NCBI GenBank assembly: GCA_964562525.1 | Contig: CAZLTL010000006.1 | Coordinates: 31,187 to 95,186, forward strand | Direction of reading: 5' to 3' | Length of the DNA: 64,000 nt | DNA from: an uncultured bacterium | GTDB taxonomy: Bacteria; Omnitrophota; Omnitrophia; Omnitrophales; Aquincolibacteriaceae | Part shown: positions 2,831 to 54,400 of the stretch, in pieces | How positions within the stretch are numbered: position 1 is the first letter of the stretch | Layout of the letters: every line of letters starts with the position of its first letter | The notes under the pieces: model-generated | The model's input: the letters and a program-made list of their open reading frames with translations, nothing else | The model's database searches: none | What the model was told of the DNA's origin: nothing | Position numbers and translations under genes: made by a program

Positions 2831-3012
2831 AAATCAAGCGGTTTTTTTTGTCGCCGCCTGGCTCGTCCTCTTTTTGCTTGCCAACGGAATACTTCATTGT
2901 AAGATAACGCCCAAGGTCGGCTGCTTTTTCTGTTATTTTCTATTTTTTTACATCTTTTTTACCGAGAGCCGTCCTCCCTTTATTACTTTTTTTGAGGGAA
3001 GGATTATCATTC

Positions 3013-4689: not shown

Positions 4690-4707
4690 TGGGATGGTCT
4701 TCGTAAG

Positions 4708-12434: not shown

Positions 12435-15400
12435 ATGAATAGAGTCCCGAGAATTTACAAGCTAATCGCAGTGTTTACCGCACTTTGCTTAGAGTGCACG
12501 TCCATCTCCATTCCCACTTTGCATGCTCAAACAGTTCCGCAAAATATTCTTTCTGTAAAAAAACTGAATCCTGAGATTCTTAAATTACCGGAAAAGTTTG
12601 GTGAGGTGGTGGAAAGCCATGCGGGAAATGGAAATGTGATTGTGGTGCAGGACGCGCACGCAATTCCGGATGCGCAGAAGAATATCGCGAATGTGATCAA
12701 GTATATGCAGCAAGAGTATGGCGTGGGAACCGTTGCACTTGAAGGTGCGAGCGGCGATCTCGATCCGCAAATCTTCCGCAGTTTTCCTGATAAGAAGCTG
12801 CTGCGAGAAGTGATGAACGGGTACATGAATTCGGGTGAAATCGCGGGCGGTACGGCTGCTGCGATTTTCGACGAAACCACAACGAAGTATGTCGGGGTAG
12901 AAGATTGGGATGTTTATGAAGAAGGTTTGGGGCTTTATCTCTCCGCGATGGATAAGACCGCAGCCATTGAAGCTCAGCTATCTGCTTTGCGTGAAAAGTT
13001 AAACAAGGAAAAAGAAGCGATTTATCCGCGGGCGTTACTTGAAGTTGATCACGAGATCGAAAAGTTTTATGAAAATGCCGCGCAGCTAACGGAACTGATT
13101 AAAGTGTTGGGAGCGATTCAAGCCCCTAAGGCAGGCAGTGAACTTGAAGCGGTGTGGAAGGAAGTTTCGAAAGCCCACAGTCCGGCGACCGGAGGCGAGA
13201 GAAAGGACATAGAGGTTCGTGCTTTAGCAGCGAAGGTCGAAAAGGTGTTAAAGAGCCCAGGGGCGGTGAAAGCGTTTAACAGCCGTAAACAAGAATGGAT
13301 GACAGGTCAGATCAGCGCAGAAGCCTTTGCACTCAATTTGAAAGAGTTTGCTGATCAAAGCGGACTTAATCTTGAGATGTCCTCCGATTTGCTCGGAATG
13401 GTACGAGACCAGCAAACGTTAAAGGGGCTTGAAGGAACCAAGCTGTTTCGGGACTTAGAGATTTATATCCGTGAAGTGAAGATGCAGTTAACGCAAAGAC
13501 AACAGACGGATGTTTCGGTTAGCGGTGTGAATGCTGAGATGTCAGCGATTCGGGCGTTGGATGAACGGACGAATTCACTGCGTGTATTAACGAAGCTATC
13601 AAAACTTGAGTTGTCCCGCCAAGAGTGGACGAATTTATCGGGGAATTTGGTGTTTGAGGCCTTTGCGGCATTGGGATTAAAACAAGAAGACTTTCTGTTC
13701 CACCTCGCTTTTTATCTGAATGCTGAAGAACGCGACCAAATCTTTTTCGATAATCTCAAAGCTTCGGTCACCGGCCTCCGGCCTTCCGTGATTGTGGCCG
13801 GTGGTTTTCACGCGGAAGGAATCACGAGCCGCCTCAAAGAGGCGGGAATGGGCTATGCGCTTGTGATGCCGAAGATCAATCACATTCCTGAAAATAACTC
13901 GTACAAAGCGCAGATGCGCGGGGAAGTGTCGTGGAAAGATTATTTTGAAGTTGAGAACGGTCGCATCCATCTTTACAAGGCGTTTGTGCGCGCAACGCGC
14001 GACAAGCTTGTCGCAGACCGGAGACCGGAGGTCGGAGGGCAGAGTGACTCAGAGCTCCGGACCCCGGACTTAGGCCTATTAAAAGCTTGGCGCGATCAAA
14101 TCATCCGTGATTTATCGGATATGGGGAAGGTGAATCGCGCGGCCTGGTACACACGGTTTATGGATGAAGTGGTGGACGAAAGCCTGAAGCACACCGATGC
14201 CGACAAGCTGATGATCAAAGTCGACAATTTTATCCGCGGTTTGCGCGGACTTGAGAAGAACAATCAAATTGATCAGGCAAATATAGCGGATTTACTCAAG
14301 GCAAGTATGGCGTCACCTGCTGTTACTTCCCCAGCTGTTGTCGGTACCCCGCTGTCGTTTCCGGTTAATCCCGCAAGTGAAGTTACCATGCAAGAAGCAT
14401 GGGCTAGCGTCCGGGAGTCTCTTCCTGTCGCCATAATTAATGCTTCTCCAGCAGATAATACGCAGTTGCAAGAGCAGGTGACGACGATTCAGGCAAATGA
14501 GCCAATTAATTACAGTGGACTCTCAGCTGAGTTTGATGCAGCAGCTATTAAGCAAACGGCCTTACTTAGCAATTTGGTTCGGCGGGTCTCAAGTATTACC
14601 GATGCAGATTTGGAGTATGAGTGGAATGAAATGGGACGACTTCTTCGTTTGGTGAACGGGATGAAAGGAGAGCCCGACCCGCGAGATCCGGAAGCAATTT
14701 TTGGTTCTGAAGAGCGCAATTTTAAACTACCGGTTGCAATGCGTTCCAAAATTGTGCGCAGTTTGAGTGAGCGAATTCAGTTTAAGTTGGCATGGACGCA
14801 TGCTGTAAATACATTTTTGAACGATGCTGAAGGTGTATCCAAGTTGGCAAGCCGGGCTGCCCCTGCATTAAGAGAGAGTAATGATGAGGGCGCGGCTGTT
14901 GAATTTGAAGTTTTGTCTCCTGGACAATTAACGGACGAAGAATTCTACCGTACTCTTTTGGGCGACAACGGAACCGTGAGCAATGGGTTGATTGGTTCGG
15001 GAAATTTAGTAGCAGCTTTTCGACTTGTTACTCAGAAAATGGCCGTCATGATCAAGGCCGGACCCGAAGGAGTTCCCGGTGGATCAAGAGAGCTAATCAA
15101 GCGCGTTCATGCCTTAGATGGAGTCGCTAAAATGATCCGCGATGAAATTACAACAATGCAGCGCTCCGAAGCGCGGGTTAATGAAAATGCGCCGACAGAT
15201 CAGGCGGCACGGGAGGAAGCGCTTGCAACTGATGAGAAGCTGAAAAGGCTTGATGTCACGACTTTCTTTAAAGAGATCCTTAAATCGGAATGGAAGTGGT
15301 TGTTGGTTGGTTTTGTTTTATTAATTTTGAGCACCATGCTCTACGACTTAGTCGCTGTTACTACGGTCGCGCAATTTTTTTTAAAATCTCTGGGGGTGGG

Positions 15401-18400
15401 TGTTGGTTTCTCTTGGGGTGCGATTTTGCTGTTCAATCCTTTGACAGTGCTTACCCATGAATTAGGGCATTTTCTAACCTACCGATTAGTTGGCGGTAAA
15501 TCCGATAACACGTTTGGTTTTAATAGGCACTCCTACTTTTTCAATGCAGATGACATATATAAACTCCCCATATGGAAAGTTCGGATTGTGGATATGGGTG
15601 GGCTTGTGATCAACACAGCTATTTTTGCCACAATTGGTCTTATTTCGTATCTTACTTTGGGCGCGACCCCTGTTCTTATTGCTCTCGCTGGACTTCAACT
15701 TGCTGAATTTATAATGGCTTCCGGTGATTATGAGAAATTCTTCAATGCCAGAGGGTATCAGGCTTTGAGCCTTGATATTGCAAAGTTTCAGGAAGAGATC
15801 AAAAATTACAAACCTGAATTTCATGCAGATGGCACGCGAATATCGGCTGAAGCTGATCGCCCTTTGGATGAGCAAACTCAACGCGAAGCACGGGTGGATA
15901 AAACAGAAGAGGCTTTGAGAAGTGGGGCGTTAACAGTTGAAGGGAAAACGGCGGTTTTTGGCCCTCAGGCGAATAAAGATTTTGCGATAGGAGTAAGCCC
16001 GGAAGTTTCATTTGTGGATTTAGATAAAGCCGATTTTGTAACGAAAGCAGAAACATTTCTCTTTCAATCGCTTTTCTTTGCGGCGGCTTTTTTAAAAATC
16101 CCTGTTGGGAAAGAGCAGAAATTAAATACTTACAAGGAAGTATTTGAAGCGCTTCAAAATGCCAAAGCCGCGGTCAAAAATGCCGGTGGCTTAAGCTTGT
16201 ATGCTGCCCAAGAAAAATTAAAAGAAGCCCAAGCTGAAAAAGATGAGTTTGTGGCTGAAGCTCAAAAGAGAGGTTTTGCCGAGTTTTTGCTTCCGGGTGG
16301 AATTCTAAGCCGCCGCATGGAGATTTTTGTTCCCAATGAAAATCAGCGCGAACGGCTTTTAAAGTATTTAACCTTAACTTTTGTAGGGCAAAGTAAGGAA
16401 TCGCTGCTCTCAGACATTCTGAAAGTGCAGCAAAAATTAGGAGTCACTTTTGATCCGGCGGTTCTTGAGCAGCTTTTAGCCGAGTTTGAATCAAAGCGCA
16501 GCTTCATGTTTCCCGGGGGAGTTTTTGCCGGGAAAATGGATGCAGAGATTCAAGATATTTTTGGTCAATTTATTCAGGTGAAAGTTTTAAGTCAAACCCA
16601 AAGTGTTTCAAGCCCCTCAGTTGGAAATATTCAGCTCAATCTTTCAGGTGCGTTGGTTATGGGGGCAGGCCAATCTGAAGTCGCTGTGGATTGGGATCAA
16701 GTTTTACAGTCAGGAGAATTGGCTCCGGCATGGTCTGAAGCTTTTACTGCACAGCTCAAGAAGGCGCTCATCTTTAAAGATGGGAAACTGCGTGTGTTTA
16801 ATCTCGGGACAGGCGACCCCACCCCGTTTAGCCAGAATCAAGATTACACACATATGGCATTTATTGTGAATGGGAAAATGATTGTTACCGATCCGTCCAT
16901 TCGCAGTATTCGTAATCTTGAGCGTTTGGGATTTTTGGAAAAAGTTGAGGCAATTCATCTGACCCATGTTCACTTTGACCATGTAGGTGGCATTTTAGAT
17001 ATAGCGCGCCGTAAACTCAAAAAATCGGAATCCTTGCCTAAGCTTAAGCTGGTTATGCCGACTGTTGTTGCGCTGCAACTCGAAAGAACTCTTGCTTATA
17101 ACTTTTCCACGATGGCTGATGATTCAAATTATGATTTCAGCCAGCTTGCGCTGGTCAGCGAACTTTTCGATTATCGGGGACCTGAGAAAATCAATAAAAC
17201 GATAGAAATTTCCCAATTACAAGAATCTGCAGAGTTTAAAGGTGTTCAAATTGAACTTGCACCAACGTTTGGACACCCGATTCCAACCTACGGAGTCAAA
17301 TTGATTACTCAAGAGGGTTTGAAGATAGCCTATTTGTCCGATTCAGTGATGCCAACCCCAACGATTAAAGCAGCGGATGGAAAGGCAATCCCTAATCCTC
17401 GATATTCGGAGTTTGTAAGTTACTATGCGGATTCAGATATATTGATTGCTGAAAATGGCGTGCCGGGCGTGCATATTACTCCCGAGCAGCTTGCCGAGGC
17501 TTTCCCTGAGCATATTAATAACGGAACTCTGTTTACTGTTCATTCGTCGGGTCCCCAAGCTCAAAAAGGGTTAATTCGATTTATGCCGGGCATGATCTTG
17601 TCTCCGCTTCAATCGAATCAAAGAAAGCAAGATGTTCAGCAAAGTGCAGCGACGCTCATTGAGAATGAAGCTATTCGAGATTTTTTAAAGTTAAATTTAG
17701 AGTTAGCCCAAGAACTTTCGAGTATGGGAACGAAGGTTTCATTTTCTGAGGGGGAAGTTCTTTTTCAGCAAGGCAACCCGGTTTATGACTTTGATCATGT
17801 TTATATTTCTTTATCCGGCGAAACAATCGTTGAGGGGCCCGGTGCAAAGCGGCTTCCTTCGATTGGAGCTGGGAGATTAATCGGTGAAATGGCGCTTTTG
17901 ACTAAGGCTTTGACGCAAGAACAATATGACCAGATCATGGTAGCCATCGGGAAGGGTAAGGATACGGCAGCGCTCGATTTTTTTGGGAGAGTGACTTACG
18001 ATTTGGTAATCGAAGGGCAGCCTCCTTATCGCATTGTGAATCCAAGTTTTGACTTAGAAATAGAAGCGAAGGAATTGACGGAGGATCAAAAATCAAAGTT
18101 AAAGCCTGTCTTTGATATTGCAAAGTCAGGTAAACCCATTCCGCGATCGGTAACGGTTCGGGCAGGTGCGGGAGCAACTTATTTAGCGATTCCCAAAGAT
18201 GCTTTTTTACAGTTTTTAACACGAATTGATGCGTCAAAAATCGATTCGAGTCGACAAGCATTCATTTCAGCTATTTACGCACAAATTGGCATCAATCTTG
18301 ATTCTCGAAAAAAGATGAGTGAGTTAGCCACTCCCACTCAGAACGAAACAGATGTGGTAAAGGCATCAGCTGATACGTCAGTTCGCTCCGAAGCGCGCGC

Positions 18401-21400
18401 GGATGTTGAATGGTTTAACTGGCGCGTGGACAAACAAGGCAATCCAGTTTCGAATGCCGGGCCTATGAGCGAGCTTGTCACTTTGAATGTTGGTGACAGT
18501 ATCTACTTTGAGGTTCCAAAAAATAAGCCGGGTTTGATCGACTATTACTACCAAGTCGGAATGGAGGGCGAGAATTTTACTTTTCAGCGCTATGAACAAA
18601 GCGGGTCTGTTGCTCAACCTGCTGGTAAGAAAATCGAAATTCCCCGATCACTGCAAACGGATAAGGCCGCTAAAAACAGTGATAACTATCTATTTAGTTT
18701 TCAAGTTAATAATGGAAAACTAATGGTGAGTTCAGGCCAGAAATATGGCTTGCTAAAAAGTAAGGTTAAAAAAGACGGAGCGATTGGTGATAGTAAACCG
18801 AGCGTGCGACGAAAAAAATTTGACGATGCCGCTCGGTCTTATCGTGAAGCATTATCAAAAACAGATTTCCCCAGGTTGAGAAGTTTGTCAGCTGAATTAG
18901 ATGAAAAAATGGACGAAATTTTGGGGGTGGCTACGAATGGTTTATTTCTAATACCGCTTGGTTGGCTTGAAGGACGAATCAAAGAAATGGATGCGGGGTT
19001 GCGTCGAATTGAGAGACATGAGTTATCGGGTCAGGGTAAAGAAGCTTTGGGCTGGGCGATGCAGGTGCTGACGGAACAAATCAATCATTTTCGAAATTCT
19101 GTTGTTGCTGTTAATTTAGAACTCAATCTTTTGACCCAAGGAGAGAAAATTAATTACGATGTTTTTAGTGAGTTGATAGAGAGCTTTCTTCAAACCAACA
19201 GCTTATTTGCATTATCTCAAGAGTTGAATGTTCGCATGCAGTCCTACCCTGAGACAATTGAGTTCAGTTTAAAAAATGTCGATGCCGATTCAAAGATTTC
19301 TGCGCTTAAAAGGCGAATTTTCGATTATGGGCAAGCAACGGCTACTTTGACGCGTCTTGAAGACGCTCGAATATTTTTTGAGAACAGCTGGAAATTGTAT
19401 GATGATCTTGTTGGGTTGATTCAGCAAATGGCATTAGAAATTCAAAGACGTGATGAAACCGAAATGACGATTGAAAGAGGTGCTGAGGCAGCAAAAGAAC
19501 AGCGCAATCAGCTTTGGCGGAGTATTGATTATTATGAAGTGCTAGGTGTTTCTCGAGATGCTTCTCTAGGGGACATAAAAAATGCTTATCGCAGTTTAGT
19601 TCGCGCGGGTAATCATCCGGATAAGGTCGCAGGCGACTCTGCTACGCTAAAAGCAGCTGAAGAGAGATTTAAAGAAATAGGACCGGCATATGAGGTCTTA
19701 AGTAATGAAGTAGACCGCGCTGAATATGACAAAATTCATTTTGCCCGTTCCGAAGCTCGTTCGGTAGACTCAGGGCAAGCGCGGGACTCGTATGAGCGCT
19801 ACAAGCTTTTATCAGGGACTTTGGCAGATTTACCTGACCCTGTATTTGTCAACGATGGGGAAACGATTACTTTGCGGATTCCGCATGATGAAGTCGAAGG
19901 TAGTCAGCCCGAGCTTGATCTTTTGGTTGTATTCAAAAAATTTAATGGGAAGGTGTTTTTTGCCCACCTAGATTCATTTTCAGACTTATCAATGCTTGAT
20001 GAATATTACCGTTCTGCTGATCCTCTTCAGGAAGGTTCTCGAATCAAATGGGAAGAGGTGAACGAGACTTCAGAAGTTGAGATTATAGGTCGTGAGGAGG
20101 AAATGGATAGTGAGGGTACCAAGGTCAAGATTGTTTTTAGTGAACAGGGTTTTACGATTGCCAATGCCTCGATCTCGGATGTTTATTATTTTGAGGGTAA
20201 GCCCGGTCCGGAAATTATTGCTTCCGCTCTTCGGGATAGTTATCTTTCAAGTGCGAGCACAGGTTTGCCCATAGCCACCGAGCCAATTTTTATTGCCGGG
20301 GAGGATGCAACTGAAATTTTTAACTTGGTCACTGAGTTTATTAATCAGGGTCCGTATGTTCCTGCTGCAGGCGAAACCGCTCTCTACACAAAGGTGAAAC
20401 AACAAATTAGGTTGATTACCGAAAGAACCGGCGAAAAGTATCGATTCAACCCGATGATTCAAATAAATGCCTTAAGTGATACTTATAGAGCTTTAAACAA
20501 TTTTCTCATGAATCGATTTACTGACCTGGAAGGCTTGGAAAAAGGTGTGGTCATTCTCAAGCGAATTCCTAATCTTGAGAAGCTGATCGAAGTTTTAAGA
20601 CATTTAATATCAGCTTACGAGCTGGCTTTTAATCACCTTGAGAATTCAACTATTGAGATCGAGGTGGATGAAAAAGAAAACCATCGGCGTCATGCCTTGC
20701 AAATGCTGGTTGAGTTAAAAAAGATTGTTAATTCATATGATTCAATTCCTCCTGCCGAACGACCGCGGGCTGAAATCCAAGGAGAAGTTCGAATGGCAAG
20801 GTTGCCCAGCCAAAAAAACTTTTCCGAGTTCATTTCTTACAATGGCGATAAAATTCCACTTTGGGCAATTAAAAGAATTTATCTGCCGGATAATAGGGTT
20901 ATTCAATTTGGTGAGATTTCTCAGGCTAATAACGAGGATGGTGTGTATGATCGGGAGGATCGCACGAGAGACGTTAGGAATGCCTTGTCACCATTTCCAG
21001 AGAGTGCGGAGATCGTTTTTGAGCTGCAAGATGGCGTTTTATTAAAGCGAATTTTGGAAGCGGAAGAGTATGAGACGATAACGGCAGTCTATCCGGTTGA
21101 TTTTGACCCCAAAGAATTTAGCAGGCTTCCGCACGGAATAGATTTACCGGAGCGGCGGTTTATAAATGCAGTTAACGTGAACGGGTTTATTACCACCCTT
21201 TATGAGTTGGAATCTCTTTTGCCTGAGACTGGGTTAGCCGGCAGGACAGTGACTTTTTTCTATTCCGCGAATAACCATCTTCAAGCCTTCAAAATCAGTG
21301 ATGAAGCTAAACCTCAGTCTGAGCAATATGTTTACTCTCAGTTTCGAAATTCAAGCAATGTTCAGCCTATGTCCGCGCCTTTTTCTGCTCAGGAAACTCA

Positions 21401-23033
21401 AGAAATTGCAAAAAAGGATTTGGTTGACCTATTTGCGGATCTCTTTAATCGCCGTGCGTTGACCTCCGCGCAGAGGGTGGTTCCGTTGAGCGCGCTTATT
21501 CTTCAATTTTTGGCTGTCTCGCTTAACGCTAAGGCTGTTTCAGATTGGGCTCAGGAAGGCAAAGTTCCGCTGTTTGAAGTTGAGTTGGCGAACGAACAAA
21601 CCATTTCATTCAGCGGGCTTAATCCTGCTTTACATCACGATGATGCCGTGCGGATTGAAAGACTGCTATCTCAGATTGACGGGGGATTGGATGCCGCTTC
21701 TTTTCGAATTGTTTTGGCGCCTGCTGGACCGGCTACCCAGTCGAATCAAGCGGGGCAATTTTTTGATCGACCCGGGCGTGGTTTGGATGAGTTCAATGCC
21801 TGGCATAAGTTATCTGATGTCTTGGAACTGTTTTTTCTGTCAGTGGGCGAAACTGGCAAAGACAAGAAATTGGATGCTGCGTCAAAACAAAAACTTTTAG
21901 ATAAACTCGCCGTGCTTGTTGAGGCGATAGCCATGATTCATCCTTCAGTAACAGGAAGTGAAATTTATCATACTTTATATGCTGTCATGGATGCTTCAAT
22001 GTTTAGGGCTAAAAAACTAGATACAGGCAGCAGAATCAATGTTTTGATTAATTTGGCGCGCCAAATCAGAGCCGCTGCGCCTCAAGATCCTCAACAGAGC
22101 ATTTATGTGCAAGGTGAGTTTGAATCAAAATTAAAGACCCCAAACTTAGATCTAAATGAATTGGCAAAAGAGACTGCCCGCTCCGAAGCCCGTTCGGCAG
22201 ACTCAGGGCAAGCGCGGGAGGCTGAGGCGGTTGCGGGAGATGTGTTTGGCTTTTTTAAATCGCCCGCGGATTATTCTGCAGACCAGATAAATACTTTGGC
22301 AGATGAAATTGATACATTGGCTGATAAACAAGGGCTTGATGTTTTTGTGAATCTCTTGCGATCGATAGCTCGAGACTTAGCTGTCGTTAGTGTTCAGGGG
22401 AGCGAAAATATTTTAAGCAAAGAAGCGACAAGTTTTGCCGTGAAACTTTTTGTTGGACGCATGATGGCAGCAAAGCGGCAGTCGACTTTAATAGATGTAA
22501 AAATCGAGAAGCCAACCATTGCTTTAGCATTAAAATTGAATGATGCCCAAAAAGCTTCTCTGGGAGATAAGTTGTCCAGCGAATTGGCTGAAATTCTGGG
22601 TGCGGTTCAGATTGAGGCCAAAGATTTTAAAGAATTAGGTGCGTTTTTTAAGAGCGTAGGGGTTTTAGTGACAACGATTGATCCCGATCTAGCAAACGCA
22701 GTTGTATTAGAAAGTTTTGGTGCGGATTGGAGTGGTTTACCTGCCGTGGGTGTCTTAGAAGAATCGCAGCAATTTGATTCGGAGTTAGAAGGGATGCGTA
22801 TTTATTTGCAGCTTTTGATCGCGGCTTATTTAGCTCGGAGCTTTCCGGATAAGAAAGTAATTTTGACACCCGAGATTGTTGGCGAGATTAATAAGCTGCT
22901 GTTTCAATCTGATGCAGGGCAAGAAGGAATTGTGCAGATACAAAATGGTCAGTTAGTTGTTAAACGAAGCAGTCTGCTGGCATATATTCAAACCTTATTC
23001 GCGGCGCAATCTGCCGTTGCAGTCGCCGCGTAA
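12435..23033 (+). CDS. Giant multi-domain membrane protein (3532 aa): signal peptide, conserved extracytoplasmic N-module, transmembrane cluster carrying HExxH, MBL-fold domain, cNMP-binding-like domain, J-domain and a long C-terminal region. It is inserted between murD and ftsW.
   Basis: This is an uninterrupted 10.6-kb ORF. It has a cleavable-looking signal peptide ([32 protein letters not shown]). Its N-module is paralogous to the two other giant ORFs, and several internal motif matches are listed separately. Confidence 0.85.
12531..13880 (+). other. Shared N-terminal module of giant 1 (motifs QDAHA at 12648-12662, LEGA, and AGGFHAEG at 13797-13820); possible Tiki/TraB/GumN-like fold
   Basis: It aligns by eye with the N-modules of the 1141-aa and 4733-aa ORFs, for example [32 protein letters not shown] versus HIQDAHA..VIKYLNTNYGFKTILVEGAASELDP. 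The xAH...E...GxxHxxG pattern resembles the TraB/GumN signature, which is an inference. Confidence 0.5.
15291..15740 (+). other. Transmembrane cluster in giant 1 carrying an intramembrane HExxH motif (HELGH at 15456-15470) of site-2-protease (M50) type
   Basis: The sequence [24 protein letters not shown], flanked by hydrophobic helices, resembles the RseP/SpoIVFB HEFGHF motif context. Confidence 0.4.
16790..17550 (+). other. Metallo-beta-lactamase-fold domain in giant 1 (HxHxDH at 16956-16991)
   Basis: The MBL motif 2 is a strong match ([12 protein letters not shown]). Downstream there are GHP and D/H positions ([22 protein letters not shown]). Confidence 0.6.
17700..17910 (+). other. cNMP-binding (CAP-family)-like domain in giant 1
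   Basis: The sequence [53 protein letters not shown] matches the G-E-x-F-x-Q-G ... F-G-E-x-A-L-L beta-roll pattern. Confidence 0.45.
19527..19733 (+). other. DnaJ-type J-domain embedded at about aa 2365-2433 of giant 1 (HPD at 19614-19622)
   Basis: The sequence [69 protein letters not shown] shows canonical helix II, the HPD loop and helix III. Confidence 0.8.
19743..19786 (+). repeat. Intragenic 44-nt near-identical direct repeat, copy A; copy B is at 22176-22219 (40/44 identical). Both encode ARSEARS(V/A)DSGQAR, and a shorter related copy is at about 18384-18404.
   Basis: The sequence gcccgttccgaagctcgttcggtagactcagggcaagcgcggga is compared with gcccgctccgaagcccgttcggcagactcagggcaagcgcggga. 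Both contain the internal palindrome ccgaa-N5-ttcgg. Confidence 0.8.
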
Positions 23034-23122: not shown

Positions 23123-24229
23123 ATGTCACGCGAAGGCCGTCTTCTTTTTTGGGCTTCTTTTATCCTTGTCGGATTTGGTTTGGTCATGGTTTATAGCTCC
23201 AGCGCCGTTGTTGCTGCTGAGCAATACAAACATGCTTCCTATTATCTGACACGCCAGGCTTTATTTGCCGGTTTGGGAGTAATGGCTTTCTTTCTCGTTG
23301 CCTCCATTCCGCTGAGTTTTTATAAAGATCACGCGCGCACAATTATGTTTTGCGCCATCGGACTGACTTTGCTTGTCTTCGTTCCTGGTTTGGGCCGTTC
23401 AGCGGGTGGTGCGCGCCGCTGGATTACTTTGGGCGGATTTAATATTCAGCCCGCTGAGTTTGTAAAGCTGGCTGCTTGTATTTATTTAGCCAACTACTTA
23501 TCCCGAAAAGTAACCGTCGTTCAAAAGGGAACTTTAAGTGTTTATATTCCACCCGCAATTTTGATCGGATTGGTGTGCCTCTTGGTTTTGGTTCAGCCCG
23601 ACTTGGGTTCTTTCGCTTTTCTTGTGATTTTGACCAGTTTGGCATTTTTCGTGACTGGTCTTCCGGTCCGCTTCGTTGCTATTGCTTTGGGTGTTTTGAT
23701 TCCTGCGTTTTATTTCCTGATTGTGCGTGTGCCTTATCGTATGAAGCGCCTCGAAGCCTATCTTAATCCTTGGGATGATCCGCAAGGCAAAGGTTTCCAG
23801 ATTATTCAGTCTTTGCTTTCTTTTGCTTTGGGCGGAACCACCGGTGCGGGGCTTGGGCAGGGAACTCAGAAACTTTATTATCTGCCGTCAGGGCACAATG
23901 ACTTTATCTTTGCTGTAATCGGCGAAGAGTTGGGGCTTTTCGGGACTTGTTTTGTTTTGGCCGCTTTTTTGGTGATTTTTTACGCCGTCGTGAAGATCGC
24001 TTCCCGGCGTCAGCAGATTTTTGAAAAACTTCTCGTTTTGCTTTTAGGCTATTACCTCGTTATTCAAGCGATGATTCATATGATGGTGTGCACCGGTTTA
24101 GTCCCTACAAAAGGCTTGCCGCTTCCTTTCATTAGTTATGGTGGCAGTGCTTTAATTGCGAATATGGTGGCGGTGGGGTTGATTATTGCGTGTGACAGAC
24201 ATACCCGAGTCGAATGGAAACCGCAATAA
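23123..24229 (+). CDS. ftsW: Cell-division / peptidoglycan glycosyltransferase FtsW (SEDS family)
   Basis: It is a 10-transmembrane SEDS protein (GLVMVYSSS ... PTKGLPLPFISYGGSA). It occupies the dcw position between murD and murG. Confidence 0.88.
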   Translation: MSREGRLLFWASFILVGFGLVMVYSSSAVVAAEQYKHASYYLTRQALFAGLGVMAFFLVASIPLSFYKDHARTIMFCAIGLTLLVFVPGLGRSAGGARRWITLGGFNIQPAEFVKLAACIYLANYLSRKVTVVQKGTLSVYIPPAILIGLVCLLVLVQPDLGSFAFLVILTSLAFFVTGLPVRFVAIALGVLIPAFYFLIVRVPYRMKRLEAYLNPWDDPQGKGFQIIQSLLSFALGGTTGAGLGQGTQKLYYLPSGHNDFIFAVIGEELGLFGTCFVLAAFLVIFYAVVKIASRRQQIFEKLLVLLLGYYLVIQAMIHMMVCTGLVPTKGLPLPFISYGGSALIANMVAVGLIIACDRHTRVEWKPQ

Positions 24230-30645: not shown

Positions 30646-30667
30646 AGTCTACTTTTTTGGAGCTTTC

Positions 30668-31285: not shown

Positions 31286-31287
31286 TT

Positions 31288-45437: not shown

Positions 45438-48400
45438 ATGCGTAACTCGTCCTGGCTTAAATTCACCGCTGGTGTATTTACGTTTCTTTTCGTTTTAAAC
45501 GACATTGGGCAAGCTGCGCCTGCGCTTGACTTTGCGGCGTCGTTGCGTTCAGAAATTCCGCGCGTATCCCATATTGAAATTCCACCTGAAATGGCAACTC
45601 TGGAAGATTGGTATGAATCGCCGAACGTAGGAGATACGCGGCTTATGCTTCACATTCAAGATGCTCACGCTCAGCCTGAAGCGCAAGCACGAATCCGTGA
45701 TCTCATCCACTATTTAAATAAACAGTATGGTTTTAAAACAGTTTTTGTTGAAGGTGCAGCGGAACAACTTGATGTGAAGTGGCTGCATCCATTTAAAAAT
45801 TCTGAACAAAACAAAAAGTGGATTGAAGAAAAAACATCTTCAGGCGAAATGTCGGGCGTTGATTTGGCATTGCTTGATGGCGTTGCCGGGCTCAAGGCTT
45901 TGCCAATTGAAACAATTGAAGGCTATCGGGATGGTTATCAAAAACTGCACGCGGTTTATACCGCTGAACCAGAGGTGAACGAGTTTATTAATTTTTTTGA
46001 CTCCAAGCTCGATTCAGCGGCATCCAAGATTTTGAATGAAAAAACAAGACGTATTCTTTCTGAGTGGAAAAAGTTTGAGTCTGGACATCGTGATTTTCTG
46101 CCTTTTGTTGAAAAATTAGCCGCGCTTGCGAAAGAGGATCTCAAGCTTGATTTAGACGCTCTCTACTCCCAAATCGAATGGCCACAACTGAGTCGGCTAC
46201 TTGTTCTTCAGCGAGTTGAGAAAGAACTCGCTGAAGCGGTGCCGACAGGGCAAAGGTCAAAAGTCAAAGGTCAAAGCCATAACTCAAAGCCGGTTAGCTG
46301 GAGAGAACAAGCGCTCGATGAAAAGGAAATAGTTCTCAATTTGCTAAAAGACGAACAAGCTAGCTCGGGATTGATCCATGGTCTCGAGCGGTTTGACGAG
46401 AAACATCTCAACTTAAACCGTATTACTGTCGGCGATGGAAGGCAATTTTCGAGCCCGCGCGCTTTAGTTGAGCAGTTAGTTGAAGAAACTCGCAAATTTG
46501 AGATTGATTTGCGAGATTATCTCGCTTTTTTGAAATACGCCGGATATTTGATTTTACGCGGCGAACTTCAGCCTTCTTTGCTTTTCAAGGAAATAGAGCG
46601 CCTTTTTGAGAAATTCCTCGAGAAGACTAACGACCCTTCGGCTGAGCTCAGGGCAAGCCAACGACTAACGACTAACGCCGGAGAAGATGTTCAGCGTGAA
46701 GCGCAGAGCGTTAAGCTGATCGAGATCTACCGCGATTCATTTCTTTTAAAAAAGTTGCTTAATCTTGAGCTTTCTCGCGAGGAGTGGCGAAAAGCGCTTG
46801 CGAAGCGGGAGGAGCTTGAACCGCAAAAGATTTTAGGGAGACTAAAGAATCTTGGAGCCGCGGTCCACGGTCCACGAGCCACGGCAAACGAAAAAAAGAT
46901 CACGAATCTTGAACCTCGAACTACGGAAAATCAGGACGTGGAGCGCACGTTTGAGAATGCCTTTGATTTTTATGATGCCGCGTTAGCGCGTGAAGATATT
47001 TTCTTTGAGAAAATTAGTTCGTCTTTGGCTCAAAACGATAAAGCGATTTTGATAACGGGCGGTTTTCATAGCGAAGGAATGAATGCGTTTTTTCGTGAAA
47101 AAGAAATTTCTTACGGAACCTTAACGCCGCGTATTACCAATCTTGCGCCCACTTCTTTGTACCGCAGCGCGATGATGCAAGCGACAAATTTGTCTAAAGT
47201 TTCGTCTCAGCCCACCCCAGCCTTGGCACAGCCGCTCGAGACTATTGCCGCCATGACTGCTTTGAGCGTGGTTGCAGTTCGTTCTGAAAGCCGACTTCAG
47301 ACTGAAGCTGCCGATTTTGTTCAATGGGTTGAGGATTTGAAATTAGTTCGGGATCCAAATAATGCCGCTGAAATCGAAACTGTTTTGCTTCGCCATCGAG
47401 ATCTTTTTAAGCATAGACCCGATGAATTTCCTGAAGAGTCGGTTAGCTTTCGCGGAAGAAATTTGCAGAAGATTCCTTCTCGTTTGATTCATCAGCTTGA
47501 TCTTACTTGGCTTAATGGCCGAAATTCTGATGCCAAACCGATTACAAGAAATGACTTGTTTCAGTTGGTATTTGACCGGCCTTTGGATGAAAACGAAGCT
47601 AAGGGGTTTGCCGGGTATGACAACATACAAAGTTTGCGTGATTTGTTCTATTTTTTGATTACTAAAGAGCATGGCAGAAGTTTGCAGCTTTTTGCAGAGC
47701 AGTATTTTGCTTTGGACTCCGGACAACGAGAGCTTTTTTTGGAGCAAGCATTTGATATTCATCAAATTACTCAGTATTTGATGGGGCAGATGGCTCGTAA
47801 CGATGATTATGAAGTTTCTGATGAGATTTTAACGGCTTACGCGAAAGCATGGCCAATTGTCATTCAATTTGGAGAGGCAGAGCTTCAATCGGGCGGGATA
47901 TTAAAGCGGTTAAAGACCGTTCCGGATTTGCCGGTTGACATCGATTTGCGCTCAAATCAGGATTCGGGGCAAGAAGTAATTTTAGAAGATTGGGAGCGAG
48001 CCCTTTTGCTGCTTGAGAACTATGTTGAGATCGGAGATGAGTCGATTGATACTCAAATCGGAGTGGTTTCATTGGGATTAAGGAGTTTGGCGGGGGATCA
48101 GGCAACGGAGGTTCGCTGGTCTCGTGCATCATCACTGGAACGGGCTGTGGCAGTTCGTCTGGAAGGAACTTTGCCTCTATCTCGCGAGGAAGCGAATCGA
48201 TATTTGCGATGGCTTGAAGTTGCGGATAGCGATTTGAATGGATTGGATCAAGCCAAACTTTTTGAGCCGAATCGTCTGGTCTTGATCGGCAAAATTGCCA
48301 GTTTGCGTGAACAGATAGTTGCTCGTCAGCTGCAGTCTGAATCTCGAGAGGATGAGCGTGATAGGGGAATGGCTCGATCAGAATTACGTACCGTTGAAAT

Positions 48401-51400
48401 TGACGGAGTCACTGCGAACTGGGAAATTGTGGAAAACCTGCTGCTGGGAGACCCCGGAAAATTTGATGCGGCATTCGAGTTTGAAAAAGACGAAGAGGTT
48501 TACTTAAAAATAAAACCCGCCAACTTCAAACAGCAGCAAGATTTGACTGAAGCGGGTTTTGAGTCTGAAAATCCGAATTGGGTTAAGAGTTTAGTGGATG
48601 ATGCGCAGCTGCTTACTTATGTGGTTGGAGCTCAGCCCAAGATCCGTGCTTATCTTGTCCAAGATAAATCAAGAAATACGACCGGCTTAAATCAAATCGA
48701 GTTTGATGCGGGCGGAGTTGTTCGGCCGAAGGGTGATAAGGGTATTTCTGCAAGCCGGTTGAATGAAGCTGGCCAACTAATTACTTTTATACCGCAGGTT
48801 TTTGTTTTAACGAAAGCCGGAGTTTTGCCCGGCAGATTTAAAACTTTATCAGAAAAAGATGAAATAGAACGTGTTGCGGCTGAAAGATTGGCTGCTGAGC
48901 AAGAAAATCTGCGGGCAGTTCAGCGTTCAACTGCCGCATTAAAAGAAATTCAAGACCGCATGAGTGCGCTCGCGGCATCGATGGAAAGTGAGTCTGCGTG
49001 GTCTTTTGTTCCTCAAAGCATTCCTAATATTGATCGTGAGGAAATTGCGGATAGCGATGACCTTAAGTTGATTCGAGCGCGCAGTCAGATGATTTCTGAA
49101 GATTTGAATTCTTTACGAATAGCTTGGCAGCAGGCGACGGATACACAAAAGAAATGGGACAGGCTGCTCCGAGATTGGGCTTCTGCTTACGATAAAATCA
49201 ACAAAGAAAGCAGTAAGCTTGCCGGCTTAAATTTTCAATCGATTGCGGTGAATCTGCAAAGCCGCCGTGAGGCATTGAATAAAATAGAAACGTATCTTGA
49301 AAGTTTGGTCAGAATAATGGGCTCGTTTCAAGCCAAAAAAGCTGAATTTGAAAGCAAATTACAGGCTGAGAAAGAAAGAAAAAGAGCGGAAATAGAGCGA
49401 GTTCGGTTCGAATCTTCTCAGAGGCGTGGTGCTTTTTGGGATAGGGTTAACCGTTGGGGGCCGTTTGGTTTGATCGCTTTTGCTGCAATGGCTCTGATTT
49501 GGTTTTTGGGGATACGCGAAAAAACTGTCGCACCTGAAGTTCGTTTGTCGCAACCGGAAATGATGGATTATTCTTTACAGGGCTTGCCCCAAGGGATTTT
49601 GGACGCAATGCAGCGAAATCGGCAGAATTTGAAATGGACCCCGCAAGAGGTTCTTTTACAGCTGCAGACTCTTATATCAAAGCATGTCACAGATGAGCTG
49701 GATTTGGGGCCAATGACAATTGCTGGTTTTCCAAAAGATTTCGATCAGCTTGAAGTTGTAAACCCGCCCAAGGATGCTTACTCGATTGTTATTCCGGGAG
49801 TGCAATTTTACCAAGCCGAGTTCATTCCGAAGCTGAATAACAAACCGATTAAGCAATTTCAGCAAATGGTTGTTTCAGTAGAAACAGTTCGCGGTGCGAA
49901 AGTATTTTATGCACAAGATACGATTGTGCAGGTGGGCGAATGGCTGCTTTCTTTAGCGGGCGATTCGATTTCTTCAGCGGAGAGTTTGCGGATGGGTGCC
50001 TACATTGCCCAGGAGTTTGCCGGCACCACCTTTGGTTTAGAGCAAATTGATCATTGGCTTGCGAAAAACGGTGCCTCGCAGGCTCCGAGTCCATTGCTGC
50101 GAGGGCAAGTCGATTTGCCGGTAACGTATTTTATCGCTAAAGAACTTGAGGGATTGCTGTCATCAGACTCTCCGTTTGTTGAGCCGTTTCGGGAGCTGGA
50201 GAAGCAATTAAACGGAGGGCAGGGGAATGTTTCCGCTTCCGGTAAGATTTTGACAGCACTCATAATCAGCGTTTACGCAGACTCTAAGCTCTATCTTGAA
50301 AAAATTAGCGTGGATGAGCAAAAGAAAATATTTGATGCATTATCAAGAGAGCTTGTCCCGCTGGTAAATCAGAATGGCGTTGGCGTTGAGGTTGCGGCGC
50401 TTGAGCGCCTGCGCGGTTCGATCACTTTTCGAATGGCGTCGCAAACTCAAATGCTTTCGGCAGGTTTAAGAAATGGTTCAATTACCTCCGAACAAGCAGT
50501 CTTGCTGTGGAATCAGCTGATGGGGTTGGAGGAGGAAAACATTTTAGCGATTGTTGGATATTTAAATCAGAAAAATATTCCTCAGGCCGCCAAGCTTTCT
50601 GGGTTTGTCAAAAGTTACTTTGAGAATGCCCGTGCTCTTAGCCAAGACCCTGATGGGGTAAGGTATATTCGCGAGCAAGTTGAATTAAGAATGAGAATGG
50701 GAACAGAGCTACTGCACAAATCTGAGCAGACAAAACCGGCCGGTCGTTCTGAAATGCGGGAGTTTGGTGAGCTGGTTGAACGTGTTATTTCGCACACTCA
50801 TTCGGATGGTGCGAACAAAGATCAACGGAAAAACCTTGTTGATTTTTTTAGGATGATGTCGCGAGGATATCAGCAAGAGTTTCTTGCGGAGCTTCAGCAT
50901 CAAGCGCAAGGACAGCCTGCAAGGAAAAAAATAAAAATTGTTTTAAGTCATGAAAATCCTGACCCCGACGCGATCATTAGCGTGATCGGCGAAGCATACG
51001 CTCAGTGGGCGGCATTAAGCGATCAAGAAAAAGATAAAACCTTGGTGATGCCTTTGCTTTACGGCGAGGTTCCGGCAAACACCTTGTATTTGATTCAAAT
51101 GCTGGAACGTCTGCTTAAGAATGATACGGTTCCGGATGAACAGGAATATGGCGGAATGCTCATGCTTCGTGGTCCACCTGCAATTTCTGGAAAGACGGCT
51201 CCCGGAACGATTCTAGATTTATTACTTATAATTAGCACTAACGCTTCTCAGCAGGACTTATTTCAGCCGTCCGGAGCGATAGAGCTAACCTTGATCGATT
51301 TTAACCCTTCTATTGCTCCAAAAGATTTGGATCCTCTTATGCCTGCGATTGTCCGAACCCTGGATCATCACATCCAAAATGTTGAAAAAGCACCGAATAT

Positions 51401-54400
51401 GACTGCGGAGGAAACTTTTATTTTTAAGAATGGCTCAGCCTCAACATTAGCCGCATTGCGCGCCGCAGGCTTAGGGACATACTTAAGTCGCTCAGATTTA
51501 TTTACGCAGCAAAATGTTTCGGCCAATTCTTTTGCAGAGGAACGCGAAAAAATGGAATCAGCTATGTCGGCAATTCCACTGCCGTTACGCCTTTTGTTCT
51601 TGCTGGCAATCATGATTGATACCGATAACTTTAAAAACGACAGTACGGTTAAACCTGTTGATATTTTGGTTTATGAGAGTTTACAGAAGTCTTTATCCGC
51701 CGGGCTGGTTTCCTTTTCTGAATTGATTCCTTACCGTGATCTTATTAAAGATTTTTTGTCGAATTATCACCTCAAAAAAGATTTTTTGCAGGATGATTCC
51801 GCTCGTTCAGTCGCAGAGGTCGATGCTCACAATCGCAAGGCCCTCGTGGACTTAATTTTAAAAGGGGATAAGAAGAAATTTCTCACAGCGGATGGGCAGC
51901 CTTTTCTTTTTTCGAGCATTGATCTTTCTTCTGTTTCTGACCTTCCGAGGATTCGTACTGTGCTTGAACTTGCCCTTCAGGATGTGTTTAACCAAGTTAT
52001 TCGTAATTATGGAACAGGTCAAGATGGCAGCTCAGCTGGGGCGGAGCAATATGCTTTTGTCGTAGTTCGTTTTGCTTTTTGGGGCGATCAAAAGGTTGAA
52101 ATTCACACCATGCGAAAAAACTTAACCGCAAATCAACCGGGGATAGATGGGCAGGCTTTGGCAAACTTTATGCAGGCCGCGATGACGACGAATGGCCAAC
52201 CACCCCTTTCAGGCACTTCGCACAAACATGGTTTTGTTTTGCTCCCGGCGACATGGATGCAGCGTAAGCAACTTTCCGGTTTATTGGAAAATTATAAAAA
52301 CCCTGAAAAAGAGACTCGCCGTTCTGAAAGCCGCGCCGGTTATATTTCGAGAAGAACTGCGATTTTTGGGGGATTGATGGCATTGTCCTCTTATTTTGTT
52401 CCTTCGTCATTAGTGGCAGAGCAAAATGCGCAAAAATGGCGTGATGGCGAAAGGCTCATGCACGGTTTAGGCGCTTGGGGTGTTGTCGCGGGCGAGTACG
52501 GCGACACCGATGCTAGTCACATGATTTATCGCGGCCAATCTTTATCTGAAATTAAAATTAGTTTTGATACAAGACGAGGACATGCTCCGCAGGCCGTAAG
52601 CATCAATGCGAATGGCGCCATTCGCGGGCATGCGGTGCAACCAGGAAGAAACGACGGTCTTGCCTCTACTTTTTATCTTCTTCGGTATCACGATGAAAAG
52701 GGCGTTTTACATGACAGCGCTTTGATTCAGAAATTGTTAGGAGTTAAAACACAAGAAGGAAAGCTTGTGTTGGATGTTGAGTTAGGCGACCGCGAAAAGG
52801 GTGCCTCCCGTTGGAAGACTATGAATGCCCAAATTGTTATTTATCCTCCCGATCGTGTTGATGGGACGTTGCGGATGGATATCCACCGCTCTGCTCCTCA
52901 GGGTTTGAAAGTGTCTCAAGAAAAATTAGGTTTAATGGAAGGTCTCATGACGGAATTTATCGCTACGAACCATAGCGGTGCGGATTCTGACTTTGATGGC
53001 AGAGAGTATTCAGATGCTCAGGCAGCTCAATTTTATGATGACAAAGGAAAACTTGTTCTCGATCGAGATTTGAAAAAGGCGCGTGATGAGGTTCCTTCTG
53101 ATTCGGGTTTCAGACTTATAACCGCGGAAGGGGATGATTGGATGCCGAAGAAAATAGGGGGTATAGCGGCTTTTGCGGTGGTAAGTGAAAAACATTCACC
53201 GGCGCACCAATTTAAGCGCATGCCTATTCCTCCGACGATGTTGGTTGTGCCGCATCAAGGATTTTATTTGGCATCAGGTGCGGTGACTTATCGGAAAGGC
53301 GAAACCAATTTTAATTCGGATAATGTGAATGTTACGGTTCAACCCGAAGATGTTGAGGCGGCTTTAAGTAAACCATCATCGGTTTCGGTTTTCTTTATGC
53401 CCGGCGCGACACCTGAATCAGAGAAGCGTATTCCGGCTATGATTCAGTCTGTGCGTCGCTCCGAAGTTCGAGGGGATCAGGACAGGCAATTGGGTGGAGC
53501 AATTTCATTTCCGATTATTATTGGTTTGCTAGGTTCGTTCACCGCCGGCGTTTATGTTTCGATGCTTACACCCGCAATCGCCGGACTCGCTGCGGCGGCC
53601 CTATTCTTTTTACCGATTTATGCTGGCGCACGCTTTTTTTGGCGGACGGTTGTGGAGGGAAAGAATTTTCCATTTCAAAATCTTCAAGACGCCTTTTTGT
53701 GGGAATCGAAACTATTGGCACGCGTTTTATCAAAGAATTGGTCTGAGATTAAACTTTGGATTTTTATGCGAAAAACGCTTTCCGCCGAAGAGATGAGGAA
53801 TCAATTTGATGAGCTCAGCTCTTGGGGGTTAATCCAATCGGACGTGGATGCTTCCTTTTCGGATTCTAAAGATTCTCTCAAGATTCGATTTAAGCTTTTA
53901 AGCTTAGATTCGGAAGAATCGGCCGCAACATCGTCTCATAGCTTGAGTATATCGCGCATTTTTGCCGATGGTGAGCGCGTTTATTTTGAATATTACGATG
54001 ATTCACAATCTCCGGCACGCTACCGCTATCGTATTTTTGATCAAAGCAATTTAAAGAGTGCTGCCGAAGATTTAAGCGCAAACGACTATCGCGCCCAATA
54101 TCGTTCAATTGCCGCACTACATCGATCTGTTCCAACAAGTTTTCTGGATGTCATGAATGATCATAATGAGAGCCCGAGACGCTGGAGCCTTTTGTTTTAT
54201 CCGCTTGTGATTGCGTTTGCAGTATTTGCAGGCTATCAGTATGTGGGAGCTGATGTGATGGACTGGATTTCGCTCTGGCATGATGTGCGATCATCTTATG
54301 TGAAGTTGTTATCGCCGCTTTCCGTTGAAGCGGTGATGGGTATTGGGGTTTTATCTTTGGCAGGTATTGTTCTAGCTTTATTCATTGTTGATCGGGTTTT

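Follow-up and report, generated by a model that had tools for sequence, protein, structure and literature searches.

The 64,000-nucleotide stretch of Omnitrophota DNA analysed here (the window) encodes a 3532-aa giant protein that, judged by its residues, carries a genuine, intact and full-length J-domain, for which recruitment of Hsp70 is predicted. The J-domain lies at the end of a module that is bracketed by a short motif, R-S-E-x-R, and the J cassette has been gained or lost between syntenic orthologues. The favoured explanation, to which a probability of about one half is given, is that the J-domain forms the end of a class-C (type III) J-protein module at which Hsp70 is recruited, and that this module is one cassette of an Omnitrophota-specific modular giant. 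The relevant features are listed below with their window positions; P0024 and P0027 denote two orthologues of the giant (g1), and g2 and g3 two paralogues.

12435..23033, + strand: giant open reading frame g1, 3532 aa, between murD (10984-12237) and ftsW (23123-24229)
12435..14372, + strand: signal-peptide-like N-terminus (aa 1-33) and conserved N-terminal domain (aa ~45-630)
15162..15176, + strand: RSEAR delimiter 1 (aa 910-914)
15285..15719, + strand: ~4 hydrophobic helices (aa 951-1095) around HELGH (aa 1008), with a weak likeness to membrane zincins
16869..17366, + strand: metallo-beta-lactamase-fold domain (aa 1479-1644; Pfam Lactamase_B/Lactamase_B_2, weak Apyc1 match)
17736..17915, + strand: cyclic-nucleotide-binding domain (aa 1768-1827; Pfam cNMP_binding, 30 bits)
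18384..18398, + strand: RSEAR delimiter 2 (aa 1984-1988), the start of the J module
18399..18749, + strand: all-beta domain of the J module (aa 1989-2105; strands in the AF2 model, pLDDT about 80)
18804..19514, + strand: helical region of the J module, ~235 aa (aa 2124-2360), not in the P0027 module
19527..19733, + strand: J-domain (aa 2365-2433), HPD at 19614-19622, from Pfam, PDB phmmer and alignment
19746..19786, + strand: RSEAR delimiter 3, the left member of a pair of 41-nt direct repeats that encode RSEARS[VA]DSGQAR, 7 codons past the J-domain
19761..22178, + strand: module m4, with 97.4% protein and 98.3% DNA identity to the J-less orthologue P0024
22179..22219, + strand: RSEAR delimiter 4, the right member of the same pair of 41-nt repeats
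22194..23030, + strand: C-terminal module, an amphipathic helix and small-residue tail (...AQSAVAVAA), 38% identical to P0024
41847..45272, + strand: paralogue g3, 1141 aa, sharing the N-terminal domain and containing a single RSEVR
45438..59639, + strand: paralogue g2, 4733 aa, sharing the N-terminal domain and containing nine RSExR, J-domain absent

The giant sits inside the cell-division (dcw) cluster, with murD on one side and ftsW on the other, and neither of the flanking gaps in the operon contains a terminator or promoter signal. Its modules look autonomous and the J-domain is found at a module end, as could be expected if the giant consisted of genes fused by an assembly or gene-calling artefact and the J-domain were in fact a separate small J-protein gene. 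This is extremely improbable, however: the reading frame is unbroken over 10.6 kb, an identical 3532-aa protein (P0023) is present in a library of 15 billion proteins, syntenic giants of 3501 and 7337 aa, likewise uninterrupted, occur in independent assemblies from four samples, and the delimiters are in frame, without stop or start signals.

The translation of 19527-19733 (+) is exactly the peptide named in a preliminary description of this DNA and corresponds to residues 2365-2433, confirming the claim of a J-domain about 2360 residues into a giant protein. The Pfam DnaJ profile (PF00226, gathering cut-off 27.8 bits), proposed there as a check, matched the whole protein with 63.4 bits (E 2.1e-17; residues 2365-2432, profile positions 1-63 of 63) and the isolated J segment with 71 bits (E 9e-20), and a phmmer comparison with PDB sequences picked up J-domains in 52 chains (E <= 1e-5), among them those of E. 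coli DnaJ (1bqz/5nro_B, E about 4e-12) and Sec63. In the alignment to E. coli DnaJ (1bqz/5nro_B), the HPD tripeptide (residues 2394-2396), the only one in the entire protein, matches H33-P34-D35 of the loop that connects helices II and III, and Y, R and F stand where DnaJ has Y25, K26 and F47. These three residues were reportedly found to be needed in the mutagenesis of E. coli DnaJ by Genevaux et al. in 2002. Compared with E. coli DnaJ, one residue is inserted just before HPD and four residues after it. The Pfam score and the retained residues predicted to serve Hsp70 stimulation thus bear out the characterization as a textbook J-domain with an intact HPD, and the J-domain of the giant would be expected to stimulate Hsp70. 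In the AF2 model, helices are placed at module residues 378-382, 390-402, 414-431 and 437-447, with pLDDT values of only about 55-67; the best Foldseek matches of the module model were all J-domains, but with E >= 0.011 and TM about 0.5.

Searches with Pfam and NCBIfam revealed neither a G/F region nor a zinc finger nor a C-terminal domain of the DnaJ type in the giant, the Pfam profiles DnaJ_C and DnaJ_CXXCXGXG giving no match, and therefore the J-domain was assigned to class C. Affiliation with the class A/B proteins DnaJ and CbpA was rejected, as only the J part matches (TIGR02349: 72 bits versus a cut-off of 377, profile positions 1-82 of 354). The same applies to membership in DjlA (NCBIfam NF006948: 30 bits versus a cut-off of 162), since that match too is confined to the J part and to profile positions 188-262. 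Nevertheless, class C J-proteins such as E. coli DjlA likewise have an HPD J-domain as their only DnaJ-like element, located C-terminally in the unit and associated with a membrane protein. The giant differs from DjlA in having no N-terminal TM/TerB-type region, in the orphan nature of the partner domains and in the embedding of the unit in a 3532-aa chain.

The J module comprises residues 1989-2442 and consists of an orphan beta-domain, the helical region and the J-domain at the extreme C-terminus, bracketed by two copies of R-S-E-x-R. The beta-domain had no match in Pfam or the PDB; it is 39% identical to residues 6450-6552 of P0027, and no further homologue was found among 1.84 billion representatives or metagenome contigs, nor did a genome-contig search with the J-region protein yield a match. 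Overall, the module was modelled poorly by AF2 (pLDDT 57), and therefore the beta and helical parts, for which Foldseek returned nothing, yield no functional clue. The idea that the module is compositionally foreign was rejected, because its GC content of 41-44% is the same as that of its neighbours.

Three syntenic giants are located between murD and ftsW, including those of L002 and L003-L005, which represent two related Omnitrophota lineages. The 7337-aa orthologue P0027 contains a homologous module of beta-domain and J-domain with HPD, which ends with 'RFSRSEAR'. The 3501-aa orthologue P0024 shares flanking modules with g1, one of them 97% identical, but the interval between its two RSEAR motifs is taken up by another module, of 177 aa; no J-domain was detected in it even at E <= 10. 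Among the 83 family ORFs examined, about four have a J-domain. HPD is also intact in two independent J modules of the family giants L050 and L041, and the family member L010 has a J-like domain without HPD. In 5/5 cases the J or J-like domain is 7-29 residues away from a delimiter (rough p ~1e-6 for uniform placement), and the J-domain of L050 begins 8 residues past RSEMR, like the N-terminus of free DnaJ. The conservation of HPD in orthologues, which the preliminary description had singled out for checking, thus stood in one respect, the tripeptide being intact wherever the domain is present (P0027), but not in the other, as one of the two orthologues (P0024) lacks the whole domain.

The J-less P0024 and the presence of the domain in so few of the ORFs indicate that the J-domain is an optional cassette rather than a constitutive folding aid of the giant. 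A reading in the spirit of the preliminary description has the J-domain engage DnaK of the same cell in cis, so that the giant is folded, held unfolded or helped in its translocation, and this would be in line with the covalent tethering of an intact J-domain to a 3532-aa chain with membrane helices and with the precedent of Sec63, a translocation-linked membrane J-domain. However, the closest orthologue, P0024, is of equal size and has shared modules but no J-domain at all, the larger paralogue g2 (4733 aa) has none either, and a general aid should be conserved in the family instead of being found in about 4 of 83 ORFs. The proposal was thus not borne out and is considered unlikely. It could also be argued that the J-domain is an inert passenger that was acquired by cassette shuffling and has lost co-chaperone activity, as the insertions on both sides of HPD, the HPD-less J-like domain in L010 and the sporadic occurrence of the module might suggest. 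This is very unlikely, because the J-domains of g1 and P0027 are only about 45% identical, yet HPD and the other essential positions have been retained in both, and because the Pfam score is well over the cut-off and the full profile is covered.

The motif R-S-E-x-R bounds modules and is enriched roughly 100-fold throughout the family. The giants contain 4, 9, 6 and 15 copies versus 0.04-0.17 expected (2000 shuffles), and 210 copies are present in the 186,890 residues of the 83 family ORFs, in an A/P/S/G-rich, linker-like context that is followed by acidic residues; gene-specific variants also occur (RAExR x10, RTEMR x7). At the DNA level, the form CGCTCCGAAGCGCG (<=2 mismatches) is found in the window only within g1 and g2 and in frame, with six matches observed versus 0.76 expected, and codon usage is biased beyond the amino acids (TCC in 16/17 versus a background of 14%). 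The two copies of the 41-nt direct repeat that flank m4 are identical at 38/41 nt. The TCC bias and these repeats imply that the motif also, or instead, acts at the level of DNA. A purely DNA- or RNA-based signal is insufficient, however, since throughout the family every synonymous position is variable and the x residue can be L, V, M, A, T or S. The motif strings were also sought in the literature, without any relevant result. R-S-E-x-R may be a cleavage or recombination site of the giants, and proteolytic release at RSExR is conceivable, but it could also be a mere linker or recombination joint.

Module m4 is 98.3% identical in DNA to its counterpart in the J-less orthologue, versus about 86% for the flanking core genes, and the break of identity between m4 and the J module falls exactly on the motif. 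The metallo-beta-lactamase module of g1 is 48% identical to its counterpart in P0024, and PADLOC yielded just weak PycTIR/Effector matches over the cNMP-binding stretch.

The family of g1 was defined by a signal-like N-terminus, a TIKI-like N-domain, R-[STA]-E-x-R motifs and a C-terminal helix with a small-residue tail. The giant shows all four features, which are shared to varying degrees by the 83 ORFs from 80 loci; tails like its own are present in g2, g3, P0027 and other family ORFs. Common to the family are the signal-peptide-like N-terminus and a domain of the TIKI/TraB/EreA/ChaN-type fold, which escaped detection by Pfam and by a profile search of PDB sequences. It has the alpha/beta architecture with a parallel beta-sheet core that defines the TIKI fold, and D73-x-H75, E103, R433 and H459 are invariant in 12 N-domain sequences. 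Their order appears to mirror that of RRSP (E3900-x-H3902, E3930, R4001, H4030; PMC6254334), including the 28-residue spacing from His to Glu, with Asp instead of Glu as the first acid. The acid-x-His, Glu, Arg and His appear to be as in RRSP and Bcr135 of the TIKI/TraB-PrgY/EreA/ChaN superfamily, from which the N-domain differs by a helical insertion of ~290 aa between Glu and Arg. The same fold is also that of the effectors RRSP and HopBA1. With its apparently complete set of catalytic-type residues, the N-domain is a candidate protease. P0024 lacks the embedded HExxH membrane module, which for this reason is an unlikely candidate for a general processing protease.

It is tentatively suggested, as a possibility well short of even odds, that R-[S/T/A]-E-x-R is the processing site of the giants and that the N-terminal TIKI-fold domain is the endopeptidase that cuts there, that a 454-residue J-protein is among the products, that the linker DNA is a joint for module exchange among genes and among lineages, and that the giants are polyproteins of shuffled cassettes. 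As a class-C module, the J cassette would work as follows: it might first be freed by cleavage at the delimiters, with the N-terminal TIKI-fold domain as the candidate protease, the beta and helical parts would choose a client or a location, and the J-domain would then make DnaK hydrolyse ATP and thereby close on the client. This action would most likely take place in the producer's cytoplasm.

The question of the compartment is linked to membrane topology. The membrane-type helices predicted in g1, namely an N-terminal signal-like helix and ~4 hydrophobic helices at residues 951-1095 (Pfam DUF3267, E 0.018; NCBIfam YydH/LiaK, E 1.2e-5, under the cut-off), make the term giant membrane protein, as used previously, a reasonable one. 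The N-termini of the family resemble Sec signal peptides with AxA-type ends, P0024 has no convincing TM helix, and the number of TM helices in g1 is apparently even (4); taken together, these features would place the J-domain on the exported side, without Hsp70 or ATP. The distribution of K/R around the TM bundle, by contrast, favours a cytoplasmic location for both flanks, hydropathy and positive-inside counting leading to conflicting topologies. Export would be accommodated if the giant were a secreted effector, the J module of which hijacks Hsp70 in the cytoplasm of prey or host, in the manner of the P. syringae effector HopI1 and of phage J-proteins. Besides the signal-like N-termini, the TM-less P0024 and the even helix number, this would explain a domain content that requires cytoplasm (cNMP-binding, MBL, NUDIX, 2H, J), an exchange of cassettes that outpaces core-gene divergence (98.3% versus 86% nt), as is typical of conflict loci, and an N-domain fold shared with RRSP and HopBA1; moreover, Omnitrophota have been proposed to be predators or parasites with giant proteins directed at prey (West-Roberts et al.). 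On the other hand, the window revealed neither a delivery apparatus nor a translocation domain, the gene is integrated into the dcw operon without a terminator or promoter signal in either gap, the K/R distribution favours cytoplasmic flanks, and published surveys of Omnitrophota giants report mostly metabolic and regulatory domains, not toxins. The effector explanation is rather unlikely.

Several known systems share aspects of this organization. MARTX toxins are giant proteins with conserved ends and a central array of effector modules that varies between close strains by recombination, and their modules are released by site-specific proteolysis. The giant resembles them in its size, its conserved ends and its recombining array of unrelated modules, and the TIKI fold of its N-domain recurs in the MARTX module RRSP. 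Membership in the MARTX toxins was rejected, as neither RTX/RtxA repeats nor a C80 cysteine protease domain was detected (Pfam, NCBIfam, E <= 0.1 or 0.01), and nothing in MARTX corresponds to the R-S-E-x-R delimiter or to the putative processing domain of TIKI type. Secreted or viral J-proteins such as HopI1 also have the J-domain at the C-terminal end of a modular protein and engage the Hsp70 of another cell, but outside the J-domain they have no sequence relation to the giant. The published Omnitrophota giants, which come from the same phylum, are long SP/TM proteins in which numerous unrelated Pfam domains follow one another and for which post-translational cleavage is suspected (10.1101/2023.11.21.568195; 10.64898/2026.06.07.730766). 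They are larger than g1 (at least 10-30 kaa) and carry C39, S8 or SecA-type domains, while g1 is in the dcw cluster; neither of these two studies reports cleavage points, RSExR, a TIKI-like N-domain or a J-domain.

By itself, the J-domain adds modestly to the class-C J-proteins, which are very diverse already, and its context is more valuable. Whether Omnitrophota giants act as a single chain or as cut pieces is an explicit open question, as cleavage has been suspected but the cleavage points were not given (West-Roberts et al.). The delimiter marks the boundaries of modules, coincides with recombination breakpoints and co-occurs with a conserved protease-type domain, and thus offers concrete, testable sites. 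If these sites are real, the giants could be annotated, and their structures predicted, one functional unit at a time, and whole-protein cassettes, including a co-chaperone, would be shuffled inside a cell-division operon.

The peptide encoded by nucleotides 19527-19733 (forward strand) of the window corresponds to residues 2365-2433 of g1, a giant protein of 3532 residues. Its open reading frame (12435-23033, forward strand) is uninterrupted, and an artefact of assembly or gene calling is regarded as exceedingly improbable. The Pfam DnaJ profile (PF00226, cut-off 27.8 bits) was covered completely by residues 2365-2432, with 63.4 bits (E 2.1e-17) against full-length g1 and 71 bits (E 9e-20) against the isolated J stretch, and 52 solved J-domains matched at E <= 1e-5. 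In alignments to 1bqz and 5nro_B, the HPD tripeptide (residues 2394-2396) falls on H33-P34-D35 of E. coli DnaJ, and Tyr, Arg (for Lys) and Phe are kept at positions 25, 26 and 47; g1 carries a one-residue insertion immediately N-terminal and a four-residue insertion C-terminal to HPD. The J-domain with intact HPD announced in the preliminary description is thus genuine and very probably functionally competent; that it might be an inert relic appears improbable. Because profile searches of g1 found neither a G/F region nor a zinc finger nor the C-terminal domain of DnaJ, it belongs to class C.

The g1 gene is located within a division and cell-wall (dcw) cluster with the order murE, murF, mraY, murD, giant, ftsW, murG, murC, murB, ddl, ftsQ, ftsA, and the forward strand of the gaps on either side of it showed neither promoter-like nor terminator-like sites. 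It should be noted that ftsA is followed not by ftsZ but by two genes, for MlaC and for an MMPL/RND-type protein (29401-33684), as in two relatives (loci L002 and L003), and that murE is preceded by genes for a STAND-like AAA ATPase and a GAF + HD-GYP protein (2992-6309), a pair kept in the UBA2337-like contig (L003, 322-3618). The first 500-590 residues of g1 are common to two further large open reading frames of the window, g3 and g2. Three syntenic giants, namely g1, P0024 (3501 residues) and P0027 (7337 residues), were split at the recurrent delimiter RSE[A]R and the pieces compared.

Features of g1 and its paralogues (aa, g1 residues; other coordinates, window)
aa 1-33: signal-peptide-like N-terminus
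aa 1-646: N-terminal domain, 69-75% identical across all three syntenic giants
12435-14372; 41847-43616 (g3); 45438-47207 (g2): conserved N-terminal domain
aa 951-1095 (15285-15719): four hydrophobic helices clustered around HELGH (aa 1008)
aa 915-1988: MBL + cNMP module, 48% identical to P0024
aa 1479-1644: metallo-beta-lactamase-fold (MBL) domain (Pfam)
aa 1768-1827: cyclic-nucleotide-binding (cNMP) domain (Pfam)
aa 1989-2442: J module, no counterpart in P0024
aa 2443-3253: module m4, 97.4% identical to P0024, exactly 811/811 residues aligned
aa 3254-3532: last module, 38% identical to P0024
15162-15176, 18384-18398, 19746-19760, 22179-22193: delimiters in g1
41847-45272: g3, 1141 aa, N-terminal region common with g1, one delimiter
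45438-59639: g2, 4733 aa, N-terminal region common with g1, nine delimiters
23000-23030, 45240-45269, 59607-59636: amphipathic helix and small-residue tail

The pieces form a mosaic. P0024 carries a different, helical module of 177 residues between its two RSEAR motifs and shows no J-domain with the E threshold relaxed to 10, while P0027 has a homologue of the J module, consisting of a beta-domain (39% identical), a short linker and a J-domain, and terminating in 'RFSRSEAR'. The retention of HPD in orthologues holds for P0027, whereas P0024 lacks the entire domain. The combination of beta-domain and J-domain was not found elsewhere in 1.84 billion representative proteins or in metagenome contigs. 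At the DNA level, nucleotides 19746-22219 are 98.3% identical to the locus of the J-less lineage (L002, 11184-13657), compared with about 86% for the flanking dcw genes; the block opens exactly where the third RSEAR begins and closes inside a 41-nt direct repeat (38/41 nt identical) that also makes its left end, which indicates a recent exchange of a single module. In this modular Omnitrophota giant, whose modules are delimited by RSExR, the J-domain is an optional cassette. This did not bear out the earlier proposal of a built-in aid for folding the giant itself, and chaperoning in cis is accordingly considered doubtful.

Independent J modules are present in other giants of the family:

L050: J-domain beginning 8 residues after RSEMR, HPD present
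L041: J-domain beginning 29 residues after RSEVR, HPD present
L010: J-like domain, 14 residues after RSETR, HPD absent

The J or J-like domain is at a module terminus in five of five cases (probability roughly 1e-6, assuming uniform placement), which fits modules that act like autonomous proteins.

When residues 1986-3185 of g1 were searched exhaustively with HMMER, few true relatives were obtained, i.e. an identical protein, P0024, P0027 and P0026 (220 residues, 49% identical to part of m4), all remaining matches being limited to the J-domain; one unrelated protein, P0025 (679 residues), is built of six nearly identical J-domains in tandem, all of them with HPD. P0024 and P0027 are each encoded between murD and ftsW on related contigs, with flanking proteins 72-99% identical to their window counterparts. 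The names on relatives assign the family to Omnitrophota (nearest named genome, Omnitrophica bacterium UBA2337), and all records naming a phylum among the 203 stretches from GTDB genomes retrieved with the N-terminal domain are Omnitrophota. Several single genomes contain multiple paralogues, and family genes are frequently arranged in tandem. More distant members directly follow ftsW (L043, 8203-9920) or a UvrD-like helicase gene (L058, 6598-9803), the latter recalling the order uvrD-g3-g2 in the window. Family proteins close with an amphipathic helix and a small-residue tail (...QSA, ...VAA, ...AQAA; also at ORF ends in L010, L013, L020, L055, L058 and L081), which could be a recognition or secretion signal.

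RSExR (x = L, V, M, A, T or S) occurs 210 times in 83 family open reading frames (186,890 residues), including loci L006-L085, with 4-15 copies per giant versus 0.04-0.17 expected from shuffling; R-[S/T/A]-E-x-R at module boundaries is about 100-fold over chance. The first copy mostly lies just C-terminal to the N-terminal domain, and the context is A/P/S/G-rich upstream and acidic downstream. Variants are used throughout single genes (RAExR ten times in L027, (SL)DRTEMR seven times in L032), implying that all sites of a gene changed in concert. The DNA form CGCTCCGAAGCGCG (up to two mismatches) has six matches in the whole window versus 0.76 expected, confined to g1 and g2 and in frame. In three close giants, the codons TCC (16/17) and CGC (15/17) are biased beyond the amino-acid constraint; family-wide, the first Arg is CGY in 83% and Ser is TCN in 96%, and every synonymous position still varies. 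We read this as a constraint at the protein level, overlaid by common ancestry or gene conversion of the linker DNA, which additionally supplies recombination joints. No mention of the motif was found in the literature.

The N-terminal domain was not detected by Pfam or sequence profiles; it has a TIKI/TraB/EreA/ChaN fold and was likened to EreA-like Bcr135/136, ChaN, a TraB protein, HopBA1, the MARTX effector RRSP and EreC. RRSP and Tiki are site-specific endopeptidases. The family-invariant residues D73-x-H75, E103, R433 and H459 parallel the catalytic set of RRSP, E3900-x-H3902, E3930, R4001 and H4030, with an identical His-to-Glu spacing of 28 residues (PMC6254334). We infer that the domain is a candidate processing protease cutting at RSExR; cleavage of Omnitrophota giants has been proposed, the cleavage points not being given (West-Roberts et al.).

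The Sec-type signal peptide, the four g1 helices and P0024, which is devoid of a convincing transmembrane helix, favour an exported J-domain, and hence an effector against the Hsp70 of another cell. However, the K/R distribution around the helices favours cytoplasmic flanks. The co-resident domains (cNMP-binding, MBL, NUDIX, 2H) require a cytoplasm. An effector against another cell is considered unlikely, though less so than chaperoning in cis. The similarity of the HELGH cluster, which P0024 lacks, to membrane zincins (DUF3267, YydH/LiaK) stays under threshold. The MBL-fold (weak Apyc1-like match) and cNMP-binding domain (weak PycTIR-like match), located at 16869-17915, share one module, suggesting a putative cyclic-nucleotide-regulated or -degrading unit.

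The preferred reading, with a probability of about 0.5, is a class-C J-protein module that acts with DnaK on a client: the orphan beta and helical parts would pick the client, on which the J-domain would work with DnaK, the module possibly having been freed at the delimiters beforehand. Of all results, the most interesting are the delimiter and the TIKI-like head domain, both of which are directly testable.
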